DNA from: an uncultured Candidatus Micrarchaeota archaeon
GTDB taxonomy: Archaea > Micrarchaeota > Micrarchaeia > Anstonellales > Bilamarchaeaceae
Direction: 5' to 3'
DNA: 64,000 bases
Assembly (NCBI GenBank): GCA_963714085.1
Contig: OY970229.1
Span: 1,056,001-1,120,000, forward strand
Every line of letters begins with the position of its first letter. Within the stretch, counting starts at the first letter, position 1. Position numbers and translations under genes: made by a program. A model generated the notes under the pieces. It was not told where the DNA came from, did no database searches, and worked only from the letters and a program-made list of their open reading frames with translations. Below are positions 1 to 60,420 of the stretch, piece by piece.

Positions 1-1284
1 CTGCGTATAGCCGTTCTTGTGCACGTGGCCGCAATGGAGCACGTCCGGCTCGTCATCTATCACCATGTAATCGATGTTCTCGGGTATGATGAGGTTGCCC
101 CCGTATATGGGCGAGAGGTTCCGGCGCTTGAGGTACTCCACCATGACCTTCTCCGGGTGCATGTAGGACGCGTTAGGCAGGTTCGATATCATGGAGTCTA
201 TGGATGTCGCATGGTATATGAGGTGCTTGAGCCCCTCCACGACCACCGTGGACGGGTTCCCGACCGAGGTCACGTCCGACTTGAGCAGGTCCTTGCCTAT
301 GGCCGGCATGGGCTCCCCGCGCCTCACCGCGTCGTGGTTGCCAGGGGACACGATGACCTCCACCCAGTCCGGCAACGATTCCACGAAATCGTCGAACATC
401 CTGTACTGCTGGTAGATGTCCTTCACCACGAGCTCCTTCTCCTGGTTCGGGTAGATGCCGATGCCGTCCACCAGGTCGCCAGCCACCATGACGTATTTCA
501 CCTTGGCCGCGAGCTCCCGGGCCTCGCCCCTGCCGTGTATCCAGTCCACGAAGGCCTTGAACTCCTTCTCAAGGAAATACTTCGAGCCGAAATGCGTGTC
601 CGAGAGGTAGGCCACGGCGAGGTCGTTCTCGCTCCTTTTCAGCTCCTTGCGCGTCACCGGGAAATCCGGCCATTCCACGTCGTTCACTATCATGTATGGC
701 TCGAGCACCTTCCCGGTCAGGGCGATCACGTCGTCCACGAGTATGGATTTAGCCTTCTCCGCCAGCTTCTCGTCGCGCTGGCCGGATATCACGGCCTTGA
801 ACGAGCCGGTCATGTCCTCTATCTCGAGGAGCAGGTTGCCCTTCTTCGTCTCCTGCTTCGAGCTCACCATGACGTGCACGAGCACCTTCTCGTTGACATG
901 CCCCTTTGCGTCCTTGAGGTCCATGAGCGCCTCCTCCCCCATGCTGTGCAGCATGCGGGAGGTCCGCTGGTAGCGGTTCCTGAAATAGTTTATGAAGTTC
1001 TCCGTCTCGCCCTTGGTCCTGGACTTGCCGGTGACGTCCTTCGTGTGAATGACCTTTATGTCCGCCGGGTACTCCTTGGCGAGCCGGATGGGGCCCGCGG
1101 TCCGCACCTCGACCTTGGGCTCGTCCTTCTTCGGGGACAGCAGCGACTCCATGTCCGTCCTGCCCACGAGCGGCTTGTTGAGCGCGATTATCTTCTGGAC
1201 GAGCTCCGGGTCGCTGCTCTGGTTTAGGAACTGCTCTGCCTCGACCGAGAGCCGTATCCCCCTCTCGTCCAGCTCCTTCACCAT
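1..1284 (-). CDS. polB: DNA polymerase D small subunit DP1 (3' end runs off window)
   Basis: Minus-strand translation from ATG 1284 (MVKELDERGIRL...) gives calcineurin-like phosphoesterase motifs YLSDTHFGS, AGDLVDGIGIYPNQE, SPGNHDA, LHCGHVH after an OB-fold segment; missed by the ORF track because it has no stop in the window. Confidence 0.95.
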   Translation of the reverse strand, partial: MVKELDERGIRLSVEAEQFLNQSSDPELVQKIIALNKPLVGRTDMESLLSPKKDEPKVEVRTAGPIRLAKEYPADIKVIHTKDVTGKSRTKGETENFINYFRNRYQRTSRMLHSMGEEALMDLKDAKGHVNEKVLVHVMVSSKQETKKGNLLLEIEDMTGSFKAVISGQRDEKLAEKAKSILVDDVIALTGKVLEPYMIVNDVEWPDFPVTRKELKRSENDLAVAYLSDTHFGSKYFLEKEFKAFVDWIHGRGEARELAAKVKYVMVAGDLVDGIGIYPNQEKELVVKDIYQQYRMFDDFVESLPDWVEVIVSPGNHDAVRRGEPMPAIGKDLLKSDVTSVGNPSTVVVEGLKHLIYHATSIDSMISNLPNASYMHPEKVMVEYLKRRNLSPIYGGNLIIPENIDYMVIDDEPDVLHCGHVHKNGYTQ

Positions 1285-1286
1285 GC

Positions 1287-1541
1287 CTATCGCTGCTTGG
1301 TGGCCTCGAGCTCGCCCATTATGGCCCATATCTGGGTGCGGGCATGCGCGGGCATGTTTATGTCGTCAGAAACGGATTCTATGAGGTAGATGGCCGCGCT
1401 GACCTTCACGCTGTCGTCGTCGACCCCACGCAATCTGTCCTTGGCGTCAGAGAGCGCCTTCCTTATGTTCTTGGGTATCGAATTGTCGGAAACCAGCTCT
1501 TCCAGCATGTCCGCGATCTGCCCTAGTTTCGCTGAAGCCAT
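1287..1541 (-). CDS. UPF0147 family protein
   Basis: DNSIPKNIRKA and DDINMPAHARTQIW motifs; GGTGA SD upstream. Confidence 0.9.
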   Translation of the reverse strand: MASAKLGQIADMLEELVSDNSIPKNIRKALSDAKDRLRGVDDDSVKVSAAIYLIESVSDDINMPAHARTQIWAIMGELEATKQR

Positions 1542-1572
1542 CTGACATCACCCTCCGCACTCAATCAACATA

Positions 1573-1737
1573 CGGGCCCGACGAGAATCCCAGTCCGGGC
1601 GACACCGGTCGCCCGCACGTTTGAACTCGTGACCGTCAGCTGTCCTCGGCCCTCAGGCCTTAGAAGGCTGCTGCGCTATCCATTACAGGACACGGAACTC
1701 GGAACACGAGACTCGTGTCTGGCTGCGCCACGGGCCC
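1573..1737 (-). tRNA. tRNA-Arg(UCU) with three introns (1683-1720 at 17/17a, 1642-1660 at 37/38, 1587-1619 at 59/60)
   Basis: Removing three BHB-bounded inserts (38, 19 and 33 nt) gives a 75-nt cloverleaf GGGCCCG TG GCGC AGCCTGGATA GCGC A GCAGC CTTCTAA GCTGA CGGTC ACGAG TTCAAAT CTCGT CGGGCCC G. Confidence 0.92.
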
Positions 1738-1832
1738 GGCAAGTTCTCTATTGTAAATAGAAAAGTATTAAAAAATGGGAACCGGCACGCGGCCGGCCTA
1801 TTATTGGATGGAATGAAAAAATACGGTGCTTT

Positions 1833-1931
1833 TCAGGACTCCTCTTCCTCTTCGTCCTCTTCCTCCCAGTCCTCGTCCTCGAAATCGTCGTCTTCCCAGT
1901 CTTCGTCGTCCTGTGCTCCAAGAGGCTTCAT
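1833..1931 (-). CDS. 32-aa hyperacidic peptide MKPLGAQDDEDWEDDDFEDEDWEEEDEEEEES
   Basis: ATG preceded by GGTGG SD-like motif and an upstream TTAATAA TATA-like box; codon usage matches the host; fills the gap between SRP RNA and tRNA-Arg. Confidence 0.7.
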   Translation of the reverse strand: MKPLGAQDDEDWEDDDFEDEDWEEEDEEEEES

Positions 1932-2060
1932 AGGCCCACCTTCAAACATTTTGATTGCTATACTTACGAAAGGTTATTAAAGGTTTCAAAAGGCTCCGCC
2001 CGTCCTCGTACGTCCGTATTCCACGGCATAACCCGGAACAAAAATCAGTCATTTGAAAAT

Positions 2061-2317
2061 GTAGGCTTCCCGGTTGGCCGACTGAAACAGCTGTGGAGCT
2101 CAAGTCCGTCCGCTCGGTTCTGTTTCCTGCGAGCACGGAATGGAACGCTTAGGGCTGCTCCTTTCGGCCTGACCCGGTTCACGAGGCATCCCGCCACACA
2201 GGGCAGAACGTCTACGCTTCAGGAAAAGAGGCGCAACTGAAACAGGAAACGCCCCGGGCATTCGAGCCGCCTAAGGGGATTTGCGGTGCTGGGACCCCTG
2301 GCCCCACTCTAGCCCAC
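2061..2317 (-). ncRNA. ffs: Archaeal SRP (7S) RNA, compact
   Basis: Helix 8 signature GAACCGGGTCAGGCCGAAAGGAGCAGCCCTAAGC; terminal helix GTGGGCT/AGCCTAC; Alu-domain loops AGGGG/CCCCT complementary; TTAAATA box about 25 nt upstream. Confidence 0.9.
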
Positions 2318-2460
2318 GATAAGGTTATGGCACGTCCTGCTATTTAAGGCTTGCTCTACGCGTTTCCATTCGAGGTTGTAAGCTCTGCACATACCCCACC
2401 AAAAATCAGATATAACGTTACTTTTTATTGATTGCTGATGTTTATTACTGGGGATATGCT

Positions 2461-2874
2461 ATGAAATGTTACAAACATACTGATAAAGATGCGGTTGGGC
2501 AGTGCAGTTCTTGCGGGAAAGGTGTTTGTAGCAATTGCGCAGTAGACGTGAACAAGAAACTGTTTTGCAGGGACTGCGCATCAAGCGGTAATGCTTCCGC
2601 GAGCGGCAGCCAATCCCTTAAAAGACGCGACCCTGGGATAGCCGCCTTATTGAGTTTCCTCTTCGTGGGAGCCGGCCAAATCTACAACGGTGAGCTAAAT
2701 AAATTCATGATGCTGTGGGTGGCGAACATAGTGATAATCCTGGTCAGCCTCGTCCTCATGATTGTGCTGATAGGCCTCTTCACGATATTTCTTGTGATCC
2801 CGGTTTGGCTTTATGGGATTTACGACGCGTACGAGTCTGCCAAGAAGATAAACAGCCAGCTCGGGCTGGAGTAA
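2461..2874 (+). CDS. B-box-type zinc finger plus TM2-like membrane protein
   Basis: CYKH..CSSCGKGVCSNC..CRDC N-terminus; PGIAALLSFLFVGAGQIYNG motif followed by hydrophobic helices. Confidence 0.75.
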   Translation: MKCYKHTDKDAVGQCSSCGKGVCSNCAVDVNKKLFCRDCASSGNASASGSQSLKRRDPGIAALLSFLFVGAGQIYNGELNKFMMLWVANIVIILVSLVLMIVLIGLFTIFLVIPVWLYGIYDAYESAKKINSQLGLE

Positions 2875-3046
2875 ACCCGCATTTTCGACAGTTACGATGC
2901 TTGCGTGCATCGCCCAGTCCGATGCCGAAACATCGAATACTTCATTTCATGATGAACTGGCAGAGTCAAGTTATCAATTTTTGCCTGGTCCAGCAATCAA
3001 ATTCGGGAAAAGAAAATCAGAAAATTAAAAAAGAAAATAAAACCGC

Positions 3047-3442
3047 TTATTTCACCTGTTTCTTCGCGAAGTCGCCGAGTACCGGCAACCCGTACTGCTC
3101 GCCCTCATACGCCTTCCATGCAAGGAAGAGGACGACCACCACTATCAGGAGATAAAACGGAAATATGCACAAGCCCCCGATGCCGGTCGTAATCGCGAGT
3201 ATCCCGGCCACAATCGAAATTGGAATGGACAGCACTATGAAAACCACGGTTACGAGCAACGACTGCCACGCGTGGAACGCGAGGAACTTATTCGTTTTCT
3301 TGTCGGTAAAGAGAACGAAAAGCGGAACGAGCACCGCGATGATATAGCAGAGCGCGCCGAATATTCCGTCATCCCCCGAGCTTGCAGCCACGGATTTTGC
3401 CGGAGCGGCATTTGACGCAGCGGCAGGTTTTTCTTCAGCCAT
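3047..3442 (-). CDS. DUF4870-like membrane protein
   Basis: GALCY...FHAWQSL...KAYEGEQYGLPVLG pattern with three TM helices. Confidence 0.75.
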   Translation of the reverse strand: MAEEKPAAASNAAPAKSVAASSGDDGIFGALCYIIAVLVPLFVLFTDKKTNKFLAFHAWQSLLVTVVFIVLSIPISIVAGILAITTGIGGLCIFPFYLLIVVVVLFLAWKAYEGEQYGLPVLGDFAKKQVK

Positions 3443-54292: not shown

Positions 54293-55018
54293 ATGACTCC
54301 TGCGATGAGGGACAAGGACGCCCTTTTCAAGGGCGAACAGGCAAAGGAATACGCGCTGTTCAATCGTGCGGTCCCGCACCACGACGACTTCCAGCGGACG
54401 GTCGGGCGGTTGGTGAATTCCAGCATCGTCCGCCCAGCAGTAATGCGCGGAAAAAAGGCAACGCTGGCAGAAGGCGGCATCGGGATCGGTTGCAGCCTCG
54501 CCATGGTGCTTGATGAAACAGGTGGTCTTGCCGGAGTGGAACGCCTCTATGCGATCGATGCAAGCCCTGCCATGGTTGACATCTGCAGAAGCACTTTCGC
54601 AGTTCCGCAGATAGAATTCGTAACCGCGGACCTGCTAAGCTTCCTTGAAGGTCCTGCACCCCTTCTGGAAGGCCTCTATAGCGCTTATACGATACACAAC
54701 ATGTCGCAAGCTGACCAGATACTCATCTTTAAGGCGATATACGCGAAACTGAAGCCAGGCGGTTGTTTTGTGGACGGCGACCTCCTCGCATACTCCGATC
54801 CGGAGGCACAGAAACGCACTTTCCAGTGGCAGCTTGAAATGGTCGTGAAGGAACTGCCCTCGGAACTCGCCGCGAGCTGGATTGACCATTACAACGAGGA
54901 CGCACCGAGGTATTTCACGGTGGAGCAGCTGCTCTCAATACTTTCAGGCATCGGCTTCAAGGCAAGCCTGGAATACCGCGAGAAGCTCGAGGCGGTGATC
55001 CTCGCGAGGAAGCCCTGA
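54293..55018 (+). CDS. Class I SAM-dependent methyltransferase
   Basis: EGGIGIG, AIDAS..M, YTIHN, LKPGG.FVDGD. Confidence 0.85.
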   Translation: MTPAMRDKDALFKGEQAKEYALFNRAVPHHDDFQRTVGRLVNSSIVRPAVMRGKKATLAEGGIGIGCSLAMVLDETGGLAGVERLYAIDASPAMVDICRSTFAVPQIEFVTADLLSFLEGPAPLLEGLYSAYTIHNMSQADQILIFKAIYAKLKPGGCFVDGDLLAYSDPEAQKRTFQWQLEMVVKELPSELAASWIDHYNEDAPRYFTVEQLLSILSGIGFKASLEYREKLEAVILARKP

Positions 55019-55149
55019 GTGTCACCGCGGAAATGAGGTCTGACGCAGTCCTCTACTTTCCGAGGAAGCCGACGTCCACCGCGGAAATCCACCCCCGGAA
55101 AGGATATAAACACAGAAAAACCGAGTGGCATCCATGACAAATTTTCGGG

Positions 55150-56196
55150 ATGATTCCCATGGAAGACAACGCCATGAAAGATGATGTTACCGGGAAAGAG
55201 TACGGGAAATTTCTCGGCGAAATCAAACGGAGAATTGCGGCATCCCAATATGCGGCACTGAAAGCAGTAAACAAGGGACTCATTGCACTATACTGGGATC
55301 TGGGCAAAAGTATCGTGGAGCAACAGGAACGATTCGAATGGGGTCGCTCCATTGTTGAAACCCTTGCCAATGATCTTCAAAAAGAATACCCTGGCATGCG
55401 GGGTTTCTCTTCGCAAAACCTTTGGTATATACGACAATTCTACATGAATTATAAGGATAATCCAAAACTCCAACCATTGGTTGGAGAAATAAGCTGGGCC
55501 AAAAATATCATTATTTTCTCCAAATGCAAAGACGAATTGGAAAGAGAATTCTACATAAAAATGACCAAAAAATTTGGATGGAGCAAGAGCATCCTTATCC
55601 ACCAGATTGAAGGCAAAGCCTATGAAAAATACCTTCTCAATCAGACGAGCTTTGATGGTACCGTATCCACAGAGTACAAAAACCAGGCCAAGCTCGCTGT
55701 GAAGGACGAATATACTTTTGATTTTCTTGAACTCTCTGAAGAGCATTCGGAAAAACAGCTCGAAGACGCCCTTATCGGAAAAATAAGCCGCTTTCTCCTC
55801 GAGATGGGAGATGGTTTTTGCTTTGTTGGAAGTCAATACAGAATTGAAATCAGCGAAGAGGAATATTTCATAGACCTTGTTTTGTATCATCGGAAGCTGA
55901 AAAGCCTTGTTGCAATCGAGCTCAAGGTCGGGAAATTCAAGCCGGAATATGCAGGTAAGATGCAGTTCTACCTATCGGTGCTGAATGACAAAGTCCGGCT
56001 GAATGGCGAAAATCCCGCGATAGGCATGATCATCTGCAAAGAGAAAAATCGAACTGTGGTGGAATACGCGCTCAAGGACGTGAACAAACCCATTGGCATC
56101 GCCACGTACAAGATTACTTCATCCTTGCCTAGGGGCTTATTGAAATACCTCCCTTCAAAAGAAAAAATCGTGGAACGGTTGGAAGCGTTGGAATGA
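55150..56196 (+). CDS. YhcG/DUF1016 PD-(D/E)XK nuclease family protein
   Basis: LYWDLG, GFSSQNL, KDEYTFDFL, IDLVLYH...IELK, GKMQFY; AT-rich. Confidence 0.93.
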   Translation: MIPMEDNAMKDDVTGKEYGKFLGEIKRRIAASQYAALKAVNKGLIALYWDLGKSIVEQQERFEWGRSIVETLANDLQKEYPGMRGFSSQNLWYIRQFYMNYKDNPKLQPLVGEISWAKNIIIFSKCKDELEREFYIKMTKKFGWSKSILIHQIEGKAYEKYLLNQTSFDGTVSTEYKNQAKLAVKDEYTFDFLELSEEHSEKQLEDALIGKISRFLLEMGDGFCFVGSQYRIEISEEEYFIDLVLYHRKLKSLVAIELKVGKFKPEYAGKMQFYLSVLNDKVRLNGENPAIGMIICKEKNRTVVEYALKDVNKPIGIATYKITSSLPRGLLKYLPSKEKIVERLEALE

Positions 56197-56200
56197 TTCT

Positions 56201-57277
56201 ATGAAAACCGGCTCAGTCGACCTTCCGTTGCATCCTGGCAAGTGCCCGCCATGGCTGTTCCGCAGGATGAAGCCGCTCTCAAAGGCCATAAGCCAGCTGG
56301 TGATAGACGAGTACGGCACCCTGGAATTGCTCAGGCGCCTCTCCGACCCGATGTTCTTCCAGTCTCTGGCGTGCGTCATCGGGTTTGATTGGCATTCATC
56401 GGGTACGACCACCACAGCGTGCGGCGCCCTCAAGGAAGCGCTCACCGAAGACATGGGAATCGTCGCATGCGGCGGCAAAGGCAAAACATCCAGAAAAACC
56501 CCGAGCGAAATCACCGCGTACTCGGACCGCTTCAACATCTCCGAATCAAAAAGAAGCGCGTTGCTTCAAGCGACCCGCTTATCTGCCAAAGTCGACAGTT
56601 CCTGCGTCCAGGACGGCTACGAGCTCTACCATCATTCGTTCTTCATGGACGAGAAGGGGAACTGGGCGGTAGTGCAGCAGGGTCTCAACAACGGGAACGG
56701 GTTCGCGAGGAGATACCACTGGCTCGATACGGATAATTTCACCGAAGGGCCACCTGAGAGCATCGCTGGCATGAGCAAGGAGGAAAACGTGCTGAACCTC
56801 GTGAGCTCCGAGACCAACGACGCCCGCGAGCGCTCGGTTGAACTCGTCCAGGACAATCCCCTGCGGCTGCAGAAATACTTCACGGGCCAGACCACGCTTT
56901 TCGATTCCGGTTTCTTCGCGCTTCCGGAGCGGCATGAAATACTCCAATGTGATATGTCGAAGAAGGACTGGGAGGCGCTCGAGCGCGCGTACGAGCTGCA
57001 GCCGCAAAACTACAAGGAGCTCCTGTCGCTGAGCGGCATGGGGAAGAAGAAGCTGCGCGCCCTCGCTTTGGTTTCAAAACTGATATACGGGAGCAATCTA
57101 GACTGGAAGGATCCGGTCAAGTACTCATTTTCCCATGGAGGTAAAGACGGTTATCCATTTTTCGTTCAGCGAGATGTTTATGATCATTCCATATCGTTTT
57201 TACGAGATGTGATTGAAGCAGCTAACTTAGACGCAAATGAGAAGAAAAATGCGTTGAAGCGACTCTCGATTATTTGA
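56201..57277 (+). CDS. DUF763 domain protein (3' end recoded, AT-rich)
   Basis: DLPLH.G..P.WL, GFDWHSSG.TT, AKVD...QDG, WAVVQQG, SHGGKDG. Confidence 0.92.
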   Translation: MKTGSVDLPLHPGKCPPWLFRRMKPLSKAISQLVIDEYGTLELLRRLSDPMFFQSLACVIGFDWHSSGTTTTACGALKEALTEDMGIVACGGKGKTSRKTPSEITAYSDRFNISESKRSALLQATRLSAKVDSSCVQDGYELYHHSFFMDEKGNWAVVQQGLNNGNGFARRYHWLDTDNFTEGPPESIAGMSKEENVLNLVSSETNDARERSVELVQDNPLRLQKYFTGQTTLFDSGFFALPERHEILQCDMSKKDWEALERAYELQPQNYKELLSLSGMGKKKLRALALVSKLIYGSNLDWKDPVKYSFSHGGKDGYPFFVQRDVYDHSISFLRDVIEAANLDANEKKNALKRLSII

Positions 57278-57303
57278 AGACAAAATATCATGCGGTGTTG
57301 TTT

Positions 57304-58530
57304 ATGGCAAATGCTTCATCCTTGAATAGACTAGAGACAAAAGCAAAGAAAAGACAGATATTCATCGAATATTTGCAAAAAGAAGCTTCAATCGGTCACT
57401 ATCCTACATACAATGAACTTAGCGAACTATTCCACATTAATCTCAGAACTGTATTCCCAAGTATTATCGATGCATATCATCAAGCTGGTGTCGCATACGT
57501 TCGTGATCCAAATCCATTCATAAAATACGAAAAAGAACGAAAACTTACCGTAATCAGTGTCAAACTCTTTAGGAAAATGGGCTACAAAATTGAACGGATT
57601 TCAATTGGTCCATCCACAAAAGGCGGACCGGACATACTTATCCGAAATCCAGGTGGTAGCATCATTCCAGTAGAAATAAAAGGTTACCATAAATTCGGAA
57701 GCATAGGGGGTTATGGGCATCATACCCCATATTCACATTACTTTGGTATGGAGATGGAACAGCTTCTTTCTTACATGAGTGCATATTCTGCAAAGACCGG
57801 TTATCTTGTAACTAGTACGGACAGAAACAACTTATGCAACCCCGACCCCCGGGTGAAAATTTTCTTTTCAAATGATCTTCGGCATCTTCTTATACGATAC
57901 GGCATGCATGATGAACTGAAGAACCTGGAATGGGTGAGAAATACATATACATCCTACAGTAAGAGAAGTCGCATAGAGTTGACAAAAAACCGCATAAAAA
58001 AATATTGCAAGATGGCACTGGCGCAAGGGAAGTACACCAGCAGGAGAACACTTCAGGGAGCATTGAGAATCAATCTTAAATCGTACTTCGGAAGCATGAA
58101 AGATGTATACGCCGAAATTGGTGTGGATGCAAACTCCCTGCCAAACCATAGAATGGGCGGCCAAGCAGATAAAAGTGTCATGAAAGACCGAATTCTTGTT
58201 TATGTAAAATCTATGAGCAAAAAAGGAATAAAGGCAACGTACAAGGAGATACAAAGAACATTCGGGTGCCTTCCGAAGCTTTACTTCCCAGGTGGAATAC
58301 GTGAAATCTATGACCGTGCGGGTGTCCAATATGATCGCATTGCTGTTTCAAAGACCCCAGAAGAAAGGCGTGCGATAAGGAGTCGGATACTTTCGTATAT
58401 CCGAGAGAATGCTTCAAAAGGTAAACACATCGGATGGACGGAAATAAACAAAGAATTAAGGGTCGGCCTTGGAAATTATTTTAAGACTCTAAACGATGCA
58501 TATCGGGCAGCTGGAGTTACTCTCGAATAA
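57304..58530 (+). CDS. PD-(D/E)XK (Mrr-like) endonuclease with four homing-endonuclease-associated-type repeats
   Basis: E...GY...GPDILI...VEIK...QL..Y core; four ~45-aa repeats ending F.S..DAY..AGV; strongly AT-rich. Confidence 0.75.
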   Translation: MANASSLNRLETKAKKRQIFIEYLQKEASIGHYPTYNELSELFHINLRTVFPSIIDAYHQAGVAYVRDPNPFIKYEKERKLTVISVKLFRKMGYKIERISIGPSTKGGPDILIRNPGGSIIPVEIKGYHKFGSIGGYGHHTPYSHYFGMEMEQLLSYMSAYSAKTGYLVTSTDRNNLCNPDPRVKIFFSNDLRHLLIRYGMHDELKNLEWVRNTYTSYSKRSRIELTKNRIKKYCKMALAQGKYTSRRTLQGALRINLKSYFGSMKDVYAEIGVDANSLPNHRMGGQADKSVMKDRILVYVKSMSKKGIKATYKEIQRTFGCLPKLYFPGGIREIYDRAGVQYDRIAVSKTPEERRAIRSRILSYIRENASKGKHIGWTEINKELRVGLGNYFKTLNDAYRAAGVTLE

Positions 58531-58550
58531 CAGAATTTGTTTTCCTTTTC

Positions 58551-58655
58551 AAATCCTACGACCACACCATAGCTTTCCTGCGGGATGCGATTGACGCGGC
58601 GAAAATGGATTCCGAAGAGAAGAAGGCGGCGTTGAGGCGATTGCAAGCCATTTGA
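58551..58655 (+). pseudogene. Stranded original 3' end of the DUF763 gene
   Basis: Encodes KSYDHTIAFLRDAIDAAKMDSEEKKAALRRLQAI*, 20/32 identical to the current C-terminus, in host-like GC-rich codons, with no start. Confidence 0.88.
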
Positions 58656-58699
58656 GAAAACGATTATTTTATAAAGAATATGATTGTATTATATAAAAT

Positions 58700-59260
58700 A
58701 TGATTCAGGAATGGGCGAAGTTCAAAGGATGGAGTGTCATGGAATACTTCCTGCTGAACCCGAATACGAAGATTCACATCAATGCCCTGGCCAGGGAACT
58801 GGGTATCTCCCCGAGGACAGCGCACGTCTTCTGCCAGGCGTACTACGAAGACGGGCTGTTTTTGAGAGAGGAGATCGGGAACATCCGCAGATTCTCTCTC
58901 AACGGAAGTGATTCGAGGGCGATCAGCCTCAAGAGGTTCATAGGGCCGTATCTCGTGTCCGACAAATCGCGCCTCAAGCCGTTCCTCGAGAAAAACAGCA
59001 ACGTCCTTTCCATCTCCATATATGGCAGCTTCGCAACCGGCGAGTACGGCGACCAGAGCGACCTAGACATACTGGTGCTGGCTGCCGACGAGAAAAAGCT
59101 GGATACAAGAGACCTGGCTTCCATAGAGCAGAAACTCGGCAGGGAAGCCGCCGTCACCACGATCCCCCTCGCGAAATGGAGGGCGATGGAAAGGAAAAAG
59201 CAGGACTTCTTCCTCTCGGTGAGGAAGAACTCTGTTCTCGTGTGGGGTAATCCGATATAG
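58700..59260 (+). CDS. HTH plus minimal nucleotidyltransferase (MNT) domain protein
   Basis: HINALARELGIS; YGSFATGEY...SDLDILV. Confidence 0.88.
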   Translation: MIQEWAKFKGWSVMEYFLLNPNTKIHINALARELGISPRTAHVFCQAYYEDGLFLREEIGNIRRFSLNGSDSRAISLKRFIGPYLVSDKSRLKPFLEKNSNVLSISIYGSFATGEYGDQSDLDILVLAADEKKLDTRDLASIEQKLGREAAVTTIPLAKWRAMERKKQDFFLSVRKNSVLVWGNPI

Positions 59261-59325
59261 TATCATGACGTTACAAACGCTTTAATTTCATTCCCTATCA
59301 TCTATCCCCCAAGCAGGTGCTATTC

Positions 59326-60420
59326 ATGGACATAGAGACCAAAATCGACCTCGTGAAGAGGAAGCCGACCGAGGAGGTCGTGACCGAGCAGGCGCTCAGG
59401 GAGATATTCGAGGCCTACGAGCATCCCAGGCACTACATCGGTTTCGAGATATCCGGGAAAGTGCATCTCGGGACCGGGCTCTGCACCATGCTGAAGATAA
59501 AGGACTTCCTGGAAGCCGGGATCAAGCCCACGATATGGCTAGCGGACTACCATACATGGATAAACGGCAAATTAGGCGGCGACCTGGAACGCATACAACG
59601 CATCGCAGAAGGCTATTTCAAGCACGCTTTCATCTCCCTGGGCCTCGAGGAGGGGAAAGTTGACTATCTGCTCGAAAGCAAGAAGTGCGACAACGACTAC
59701 TGGGCGGACGTGCTTCGCATCACGAAGGACACCACCATGAAAAGGATGCTGCGCTGCATCACTATAATGGGGAGGAAGGAGAGCGAGACGCTCTATAGCT
59801 CCTCAGTGGTCTATCCGGCCATGCAGGTCGCGGACATATTCATGCTTGACGTGCAAATCGCGCACGCAGGAATGGACCAGAGGAAGGTGCACATGCTCGC
59901 GCACGAGCTCGCGCCGAAGTTCGGGAACAGGAAGATTGCCTCTGTCCACCACCGCCTGCTGCCCGGGCTGCAGGGCGTCCAGAGGATGGACGCCTCAAAG
60001 CTGCAGGCGCAGTCGAAAGAGGAGCGCGTGGATGCGGAAATAGACATGAAGATGAGCAAGTCCGTCCCCGGAAGCGCAATATTCGTGCACGACAGCGAGG
60101 ATGAGATAAAGAAAAAAATCGGGGCCGCGTATTGCCCCGAGAAGGCCACGGAGGGGAACCCGGTGTTCGAGATGGCCGAGTACCTGATCCTGCGCGACAA
60201 GGCGATTAAGATAGAGCGCCCTGCGAAATTCGGCGGAGACCTGGAGATCCCGGATGCTGCGGCGCTAAAGAGCGTCTATTCAGAGGGTAAGCTGCACCCG
60301 ATGGACCTCAAGAACTCGGTCGCCAAAGAGCTGATCTCCGTGCTCGCGCCCTGCCGCGAGTACTTCGCGAAGAACAAGGAGTACCTGGAGCAGATCAGGG
60401 AAATCGAGATAACCCGCTGA
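59326..60420 (+). CDS. tyrS: Tyrosine--tRNA ligase
   Basis: YIGFEISGKVHLGT, YPAMQVADI, GMDQRK, KMSKS, LHPMDLK. Confidence 0.96.
   Translation: MDIETKIDLVKRKPTEEVVTEQALREIFEAYEHPRHYIGFEISGKVHLGTGLCTMLKIKDFLEAGIKPTIWLADYHTWINGKLGGDLERIQRIAEGYFKHAFISLGLEEGKVDYLLESKKCDNDYWADVLRITKDTTMKRMLRCITIMGRKESETLYSSSVVYPAMQVADIFMLDVQIAHAGMDQRKVHMLAHELAPKFGNRKIASVHHRLLPGLQGVQRMDASKLQAQSKEERVDAEIDMKMSKSVPGSAIFVHDSEDEIKKKIGAAYCPEKATEGNPVFEMAEYLILRDKAIKIERPAKFGGDLEIPDAAALKSVYSEGKLHPMDLKNSVAKELISVLAPCREYFAKNKEYLEQIREIEITR

Follow-up and report, generated by a model that had tools for sequence, protein, structure and literature searches.

The DUF763 gene in a 64,000-nucleotide (nt) stretch of an uncultured Candidatus Micrarchaeota archaeon (Bilamarchaeaceae; assembly GCA_963714085.1, contig OY970229.1, positions 1,056,001 to 1,120,000 of the forward strand; hereafter the window, in whose numbering positions are given) carries a cassette made of a foreign version of the final 50–58 DUF763 codons and, behind it, a gene for a PD-(D/E)XK nuclease with helix-turn-helix (HTH) repeats; the reading frame stays intact at 358 amino acids. 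The cassette is not confined to archaea, as it also sits at DUF763 of Patescibacteria. We consider it very likely that this is a homing element that dispenses with splicing and works like the WHO elements of yeasts and the mORFs of fungal mitochondria; the nuclease gene is probably selfish.

The host genome is a single 1.57-Mb contig with 57% GC and a median GC content at third codon positions (GC3) of 0.79; among named homologs, the nearest to the window are from Micrarchaeota. DUF763 matches the host over codons 2–288 (222/287) and is AT-rich over codons 309–358 (16/50; P = 6e-11 against 0.76). The nuclease gene that follows has a GC3 of 0.38, and 1.6% of 641 long open reading frames (ORFs) are equally low. 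Behind it, positions 58557–58655 encode a second DUF763 C terminus that has the same length (99 nt) as the one in use (57179–57277), lacks a start codon, is host-like in GC3 (22/32; P = 0.41) and is identical to the tail in use at 20/32 amino acids and 64/99 nt. This is the only other DUF763 match in the whole genome (tblastn, E 1e-6). From these features, a sequence-only reading had proposed that a foreign module of about 1.4–1.5 kb, made of a recoded gene end and an endonuclease, replaced the 3′ end of DUF763 and orphaned the native end; module, size and second tail all stood up to comparison with relatives, as set out below. Contigs of the public run X1 cross both junctions (55365–57430 and 58415–58705) with zero letter differences. 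Run X1 may be the source sample and so argues only against a chimera in the present assembly; recurrence of the cassette in other genomes is the stronger argument against the assembly chimera that had been raised as an alternative.

To find the native tail, we sought relatives of the window DUF763 with residues 1–285 alone. The closest, P0062, is 94% identical over this part, has the same length (358 amino acids) and is the sister of the window protein in the 5′ tree (SH-aLRT 95). Its tail matches the orphan at 29/32 amino acids and the installed tail at 19/32. Differences between the window protein and P0062 pile up from residues 311–318 onward, those in segment 57101–57178 falling at residues 311, 318, 320, 321, 323, 325 and 326. 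The next four relatives (82–84%) also favour the orphan, as do two nuclease-free loci at the nucleotide level (L074, 72/96 to the orphan and 55/96 to the installed tail; L075, 64/96 and 49/96); in three more distant nuclease-free loci the two tails are near even. Judged by these comparisons, the downstream GC-rich tail is native and the AT-rich tail in use is foreign; the opposite case, in which the AT-rich tail is ancestral, is countered by native orphans here, in Bathyarchaeia-like loci and in Patescibacteria. As a donor of the installed tail we rejected P0180, which shares GYPFPVQRDVYD and matches 17/32 of the tail.

The left junction is bracketed by two signals. In six Bathyarchaeia-like element alleles (metagenome loci receive this label from their named homologs), the identity of synonymous codons climbs from 0.37 to 0.71 some 12 codons ahead of GGKD, compared with 0.34 to 0.41 and 0.39 to 0.43 over the same boundary in free alleles, a pattern that argues for foreign DNA shared among the six beyond the junction. 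The window equivalent of this jump is codon 301 (57101), and the GC3 change point is codon 309 (57125). Codons 301–308 are still 7/8 in GC3, and codons 289–308 (12/20) show no difference from host values (P = 0.10). The switch to AT-rich codons had been placed at 57065–57125; a change near 57101–57125 holds, and a start at 57065 has little support. The native sequence picks up again at 58551–58554 (AAA/TCC TAC GAC), and the two junctions together give a cassette of 1.43–1.45 kb.

Between the two copies, native codons from about 301–309 to 324 are gone, including some 16 codons around GGKD. The GGKD segment is absent from all orphans, the longest of which (L038 and L055) start just past GGKDG-xP, and its native copy is absent from the window, as had been claimed. 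Bathyarchaeia-like element alleles read YSFC[VL]GGKD in 9/9 related loci, and C or V/L stands there in 0/116 free-type alleles. The window has F321 at +8 of the motif, where P stands in 83/83 close homologs. We infer from this clustering that the recognition site lies within the WxDPVKxSF-xx-GGKDG-xP segment. The junctions have no meaningful direct repeats and no att-like repeat, and no exact 9-mer is common to the spacer at 58531–58550 and the left junction region. Rfam gave no intron-type RNA match of note in 55000–60000, with one match at chance level.

The association recurs widely. We compared 50 nuclease loci (9 from genomes, 41 from metagenomes), of which 11 have no upstream DNA, so that 39 are informative; locus sets were assigned by hand. 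The 3′ end of DUF763 lies directly upstream of the nuclease in 36 of these 39 (27/30 clusters at 95% identity), the recurrence that had been suggested as a check, and the gap from the DUF763 stop to the nuclease ATG is −44 to +37 nt in 33 of the 35 loci measured. A locus outside the 39 (L023, Altiarchaeota by label) is linked to DUF763 via a 141-nt contig overlap. Nuclease loci are labelled Micrarchaeota, Altiarchaeota, Thermoplasmatales, Parcubacteria, Saccharibacteria and Patescibacteria. An orphan tail was detected within 1.2 kb in 21 of 43 loci having downstream DNA (17/31 clusters) with a tail hidden Markov model (HMM) at 11–45 bits; controls stayed at or below 4.1 bits (1020 shuffles) and 0.9 bits (reverse strand). 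Each locus examined has a single cassette, many contigs being short, and L026 has a second paralog upstream of DUF763.

Displacement of the native tail is replicated beyond the window. The orphan of L033 is closer than the installed tail to 116 of its 119 nearest 5′ relatives; the three exceptions comprise a pair of element-allele copies at 99% identity and P0191, which is 89% identical over the 5′ part and matches the installed tail at 32/33. For L034, L035, L038 and L043, 115–116 of 116 relatives are nearer the orphan. Patescibacteria orphans are likewise nearer free alleles than the installed tails are (L046, 7/7; L054, 7/7; L051, 6/7). On tail comparisons, then, the native tail is displaced in three lineages: that of the window, Bathyarchaeia-like archaea and Patescibacteria. 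Installed tails of different lineages share 35–45% amino acid identity. Empty alleles, which the sequence-only reading had suggested looking for, are common: the nuclease is missing from all 31 loci of relatives of the window, each covered for at least 876 nt downstream, and from 7/7 Patescibacteria free loci, 38 nuclease-free related DUF763 loci altogether, and it occurs in 2/401 genomes of the phylum searched. None of the nuclease-free loci found is a strain-level empty allele. Element alleles nest among free alleles in a quick DUF763 5′ tree.

The AlphaFold model of the nuclease has a predicted local distance difference test score (pLDDT) of 85. Its core matches 1y88 (Z 10.2, root-mean-square deviation (rmsd) 2.7, 110 aligned) and AspBHI (4oc8; Z 8.8, rmsd 3.9, 121 aligned), and D110, E124 and K126 are invariant in 55/55 aligned homologs. 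By catalytic motif and modelled fold, the protein is a member of the PD-(D/E)XK superfamily. The Pfam family Mrr_cat scores 20.3 bits on the window nuclease, below the cut-off of 21, and is found in 17/55 homologs at E <= 0.01; LexA_DNA_bind is found in 40/55 and HNH_repeat in 3. Four repeats of about 55 amino acids flank the core. TetR-family HTH matches at residues 225–274 and 351–406 have Z 7–8, a range often seen with small helical units. Of 58 proteins, 36 carry one repeat ahead of the core and three behind it, and 12 carry three on each side; homologs range from 0 to 4 before the nuclease motif, with mostly 3 after. Four to seven HTH repeats suggest a long recognition site. The ratio of nonsynonymous to synonymous substitution rates (dN/dS) is 0.08–0.30 in the 19 of 30 nuclease pairs with unsaturated dS. 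No viral carrier of nuclease relatives was found among 17 candidate stretches in IMG/VR. An atlas search gave leads only, namely Mrr_cat/HTH archaeal clusters and one HNH_repeat cluster at 0.91–0.92.

Table 1 Features of the DUF763 locus in the window.
Feature	Positions	Strand	Basis or remark
DUF763 gene	56201–57277	+	358 amino acids; PF05559, E 1e-124
Host-derived 5′ part of DUF763, codons 1–300	56201–57100	+	GC3 0.77; identity to P0062; 5′ tree
Left junction, codons 301–309, best bracket	57101–57125	+	GC3 change point and Bathyarchaeia-like synonymous-identity jump; a bracket, not base-exact
Element version of conserved WxDPVKYSF..GGKDG.P..V.R segment	57101–57178	+	presumed recoded, cleavage-resistant target region; target role presumptive
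Foreign C terminus installed in DUF763, 32 codons plus stop	57179–57277	+	GC3 12/32; tail comparisons
Endonuclease gene	57304 (ATG; 408 amino acids) or 57274 (TTG; 418 amino acids) to 58530	+	57 homologs; AlphaFold model; GC3
Helical HTH repeat 1, residues 14–66	57343–57501	+	repeat alignment; TetR-family HTH match, model residues 5–63
PD-(D/E)XK restriction-endonuclease-like domain, residues 71–204 (D110, E124, K126)	57514–57915	+	motif and fold matches
Helical HTH repeats 2–4, residues 225–279, 290–344 and 354–408	57976–58527	+	repeat alignment; TetR-family HTH matches; likely DNA recognition
AT-rich 20-nt spacer, right end of cassette	58531–58550	+	sequence
Orphaned native DUF763 3′ end, codons 326–358 and stop, no start codon	58554–58655	+	comparison with P0062, L074 and L075; GC3 22/32

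We propose that the nuclease would cut cassette-free alleles at a long recognition site within their WxDPVKxSF-xx-GGKDG-xP coding segment. The break would be repaired on a cassette-bearing copy, with the left crossover in the shared 5′ part of the gene and the right crossover in the donor's orphan tail, so that the recipient's own tail would become the new orphan; the recoded segment of the element would resist its own nuclease. Repair by gene conversion with the orphan as the right arm follows the model of PMC7282813. More tentatively, DNA uptake, cell contact or polyploidy might bring the two alleles together in one cell. Most spread may take place inside a lineage, with movement between lineages limited to rare ancient jumps or to joint transfer of the gene with its cassette. 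In polyploid Haloferax, both gene conversion and the homing of inteins have reportedly been recorded (PMC11276520; PMC3024317). Both cleavage and allele immunity are predictions from the allele comparisons.

A number of observations weigh against a homing element. No cleavage, cut site or homing event has been observed. The empty state of P0062 is read from its tail, and the joint of an empty allele was not found in the contigs of run X1, which drop rare variants (nor in run X2, which has a small share and is uninformative). All dN/dS pairs that include the window nuclease are dS-saturated, no partner being close enough. In Patescibacteria, element alleles have no jump in synonymous identity (0.49 to 0.53), so a shared junction is unsupported there, and some retain the common AHGGKD; the difference between element and empty alleles at the presumed target is clear in the window and in Bathyarchaeia-like loci, less so in Patescibacteria. 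The nuclease tree has three fully supported host-lineage groups with unresolved deep branches, and recent homing across domains is therefore not established. No orphan was found by the tail HMM within 1.2 kb in 22 of the 43 loci with downstream DNA. Three of the 39 informative loci depart from the linkage: in L022 (3927–6314) DUF763 is cut to 53 codons and is followed by a serine hydrolase gene, the nuclease and a retained orphan tail; L062 (2456–3361) has no DUF763, and an ORF for a 23S rRNA IVP (four-helix bundle) is fused in frame to a nuclease without the first repeat, behind an rpoN-like gene, a fusion that is either real or a misassembly; and in L066, where the pattern is broken, the nuclease is a divergent 34% paralog. 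Homing elements usually target essential genes, and DUF763, found in just 26/99 genomes of the family, is patchy, unlike those.

Three other explanations deserve comparison with the homing element. The two genes could form a functional module for repair or defence, in which the nuclease acts together with DUF763 and moves along with the C terminus that it binds; recombination would bring in tail and partner and leave the old tail behind. Tight gene coupling, purifying selection, a weak helix-hairpin-helix (HhH) motif match in DUF763 (E 0.075) and the repair-type passengers of some loci would fit such a module, which we nevertheless regard as improbable: the nuclease is missing from most DUF763 alleles, the low identity between the installed tails of different lineages gives no evident shared binding tail, changes cluster at a near-invariant motif and not only in the tail, the nuclease of L022 persists beside a broken DUF763, and relatives of the nuclease occur at unrelated genes and in rRNA.

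Somewhat less probable still is that the cassette is the remnant of a prophage or plasmid that integrated in the 3′ part of DUF763, restored the gene end and decayed, leaving the nuclease as a passenger. Replacement of gene ends by integrases is known (PMC6379469), and in some loci varied passengers (Ogg-like glycosylase, alkylation repair, ITPase-like) separate the nuclease from the orphan. However, none of the 8 neighbouring ORFs that we scanned is an integrase, the junctions show no att-like repeat and viral contigs yielded no relative of the nuclease. Integration would retain the roughly 16 codons around GGKD that are lost between the two copies, and independent decay would not leave the nuclease as the constant neighbour of the installed tail in all 36 linked loci. 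Least credible of the three is that a lone Mrr-like restriction nuclease was joined to part of DUF763 in a single illegitimate recombination event and then spread passively by homologous recombination, its own target uncut: the fold neighbours are restriction enzymes (MspJI, AspBHI and the LlaBIII nuclease), Mrr_cat matches a minority of homologs and source names read 'restriction endonuclease', but the fold is common to all PD-(D/E)XK enzymes, including a known homing family (PMC3943268), and passive spread does not explain why separate host alleles were invaded time and again in three lineages, why a single motif was recoded or why there are four to seven HTH repeats.

The closest published parallels to the proposed homing element are eukaryotic. 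WHO elements occur at FBA1 of Torulaspora and Lachancea yeasts (PMC7282813; bioRxiv 10.64898/2026.08.13.744650) and are termed a third, rarer homing category in the latter source. Like the DUF763 cassette, they are chromosomal, have neither intron nor intein, and combine a host 3′ end with an endonuclease gene; the native 3′ end is moved downstream (in WHO, as the right homology arm), 5′ and 3′ parts are discordant, and alleles differ at a conserved motif (in WHO, for resistance). They differ in that the WHO nucleases are LAGLIDADG proteins with a zinc finger, related to HO, and in that these elements are eukaryotic, home in meiosis, target an essential gene, form tandem clusters and have demonstrated cleavage, whereas the DUF763 cassette has a PD-(D/E)XK nuclease with HTH repeats, occurs in archaea and bacteria at a patchy host gene, forms no tandem cluster that we saw, and its cleavage is predicted. 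Fungal mitochondrial mORFs make hybrid genes (Allomyces atp6; Glomus atp6, atp9, cox2 and nad3; PMC3630166) with the same combination of foreign C terminus, endonuclease and displaced native C terminus nearer to close relatives; these are organellar, use LAGLIDADG or GIY-YIG nucleases and are often fused in frame to the host gene, whereas the DUF763-linked nuclease is a separate, closely coupled ORF on prokaryotic chromosomes. By nuclease, target and domain of life, the DUF763 cassette is outside both families.

Three further comparisons are looser. The sequence-only reading had likened the locus to free-standing homing endonucleases of phages, which holds for the lack of a splicing element, with WHO elements and mORFs being closer: the phage enzymes SegF and SegB ('intronless homing', PMC13565253) distinguish self from non-self by sequence differences in a conserved neighbour gene, but, as that source describes them, lie between intact genes with no displaced gene end. 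The I-Ssp6803I family (PMC3943268) shares the catalytic motif and fold class with the DUF763-linked nuclease, a likeness at the level of motif and fold class; its members are described there as endonucleases of group I introns, whereas the DUF763-linked ORF follows the host stop, has no intron-like RNA match and carries HTH repeats. In e14 at icd of Escherichia coli (PMC6379469), the element supplies the 3′ end and the native end is displaced as a pseudo-fragment, as in the DUF763 cassette; according to that account, this type needs an integrase and att sites, neither of which was found here. Among the papers listed by our literature search, which left most subscription journals outside, none reports in its title or the opening of its abstract a gene-end-replacing nuclease on prokaryotic chromosomes, and absence from print is not proven thereby. 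The DUF763 case adds a single target common to archaea and bacteria, replication with controls in three lineages, and a bracketed site. If the proposal is right, a homing strategy of yeasts and fungal mitochondria also operates, through another class of nuclease, on chromosomes of archaea and bacteria. The proposal can be put directly to the test, with the target confined to about 60 bp and presumed sensitive and resistant alleles available from three lineages. The cassette could serve as a marker for DNA movement among uncultured episymbiont lineages (Micrarchaeota and Patescibacteria), its repeat-bearing nucleases are candidates for new long-site enzymes, and it is a warning that lone 'restriction endonuclease' annotations can be selfish elements that render a neighbour gene chimeric.

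More distant members of the family point to other targets. The nuclease profile recovered 91 clusters at E <= 1e-10, and a search with distant members as queries in 371 genomes of another archaeal phylum yielded L112. There (1077–3429, minus strand), a 35% relative of the nuclease stands between an upstream PF01008 (R15P isomerase/eIF2B-like) gene and a downstream 15-codon copy of that gene's end (10/15 amino acids, 37/57 nt, E 0.009); the stop of this copy overlaps the next ATG; on this one case, the same strategy has probably been used at a second target. The nucleases of L066 and L113 are tail-to-tail with the PF01008 family. No orphan tails were found for these antisense paralogs, for L111 and L116 or for the upstream paralog of L026. 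Five weaker relatives (25–30% over the nuclease domain; L117, L119 and L121 at about 1080–2370, and L118 and L120) occur in or next to archaeal 23S rRNA genes: three lie within the Rfam match, one between two pieces of it and one just ahead of it; from their placement, these ORFs are candidate intron-encoded homing endonucleases. Some HTH and PD-(D/E)XK ORFs at 23S rRNA genes adjoin LAGLIDADG-looking ORFs. Relatives at the PF01008 gene and at 23S rRNA fit a homing lifestyle without proving it. A broader idea is that these cassettes are a 'third class' of homing elements on the chromosomes of both prokaryotic domains, with a modular nuclease that itself homed across the boundary between archaea and bacteria at the same DUF763 site and that retargets (PF01008 gene end, DUF763 start, 23S rRNA) by gain, loss or swap of repeats. 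We hold this to be possible but doubtful; if true, the family would be a naturally occurring long-site nuclease that recognises DNA through a code based on its repeats.

Other nucleases also flank DUF763. A 27% PD-(D/E)XK paralog (L026, 2004–3389) and a LAGLIDADG protein with the same HTH repeats (L116, 1465–2964, minus strand) each lie directly upstream of it, and a divergent LAGLIDADG gene stands at its start in L022 (3132–3776, minus strand). DUF763 may be a hot spot for several homing elements. The DUF763 family is also represented in Sulfolobus acidocaldarius. The model of the DUF763 protein has a pLDDT of 79, with the GGKD segment (residues 311–321) at low confidence, and gave no clear structural relatives (best Z 5.8) and no Foldseek match at E <= 0.001, a result that shows neither a new fold nor a function. 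Patescibacteria DUF763 proteins (L100–L106, L026 and L053) lack H11 and H65, both near-invariant in archaea, and nuclease-free alleles in Patescibacteria are highly variable right after GGKD. Some of the latter may be resistant relics of lost cassettes.

Two neighbouring genes frame the cassette in the window. Upstream of DUF763, an AT-rich YhcG gene (DUF1016 and PDDEXK; 55150–56196) is also present in the nuclease-free loci L074 and L002 and therefore lies outside the cassette. Between the orphan tail and tyrS, a solo HTH-nucleotidyltransferase gene (Polbeta/NTP_transf_2; 58700–59260) is missing from L074, L075 and L003, where tyrS closely trails DUF763; judged by this gene order, it is a separate acquisition outside the cassette. 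The order in L074 (yhcG-DUF763-tyrS) is that of the window minus the cassette and the nucleotidyltransferase gene. Elsewhere, passenger genes stand between nuclease and orphan (L038, 6224–6967; L046, 1904–2458; L054, 1919–2440; L069, 305–916), encoding an Ogg-like glycosylase, a DNA alkylation repair protein, a DUF84/ITPase-like protein and a 203-amino-acid protein of unknown type.

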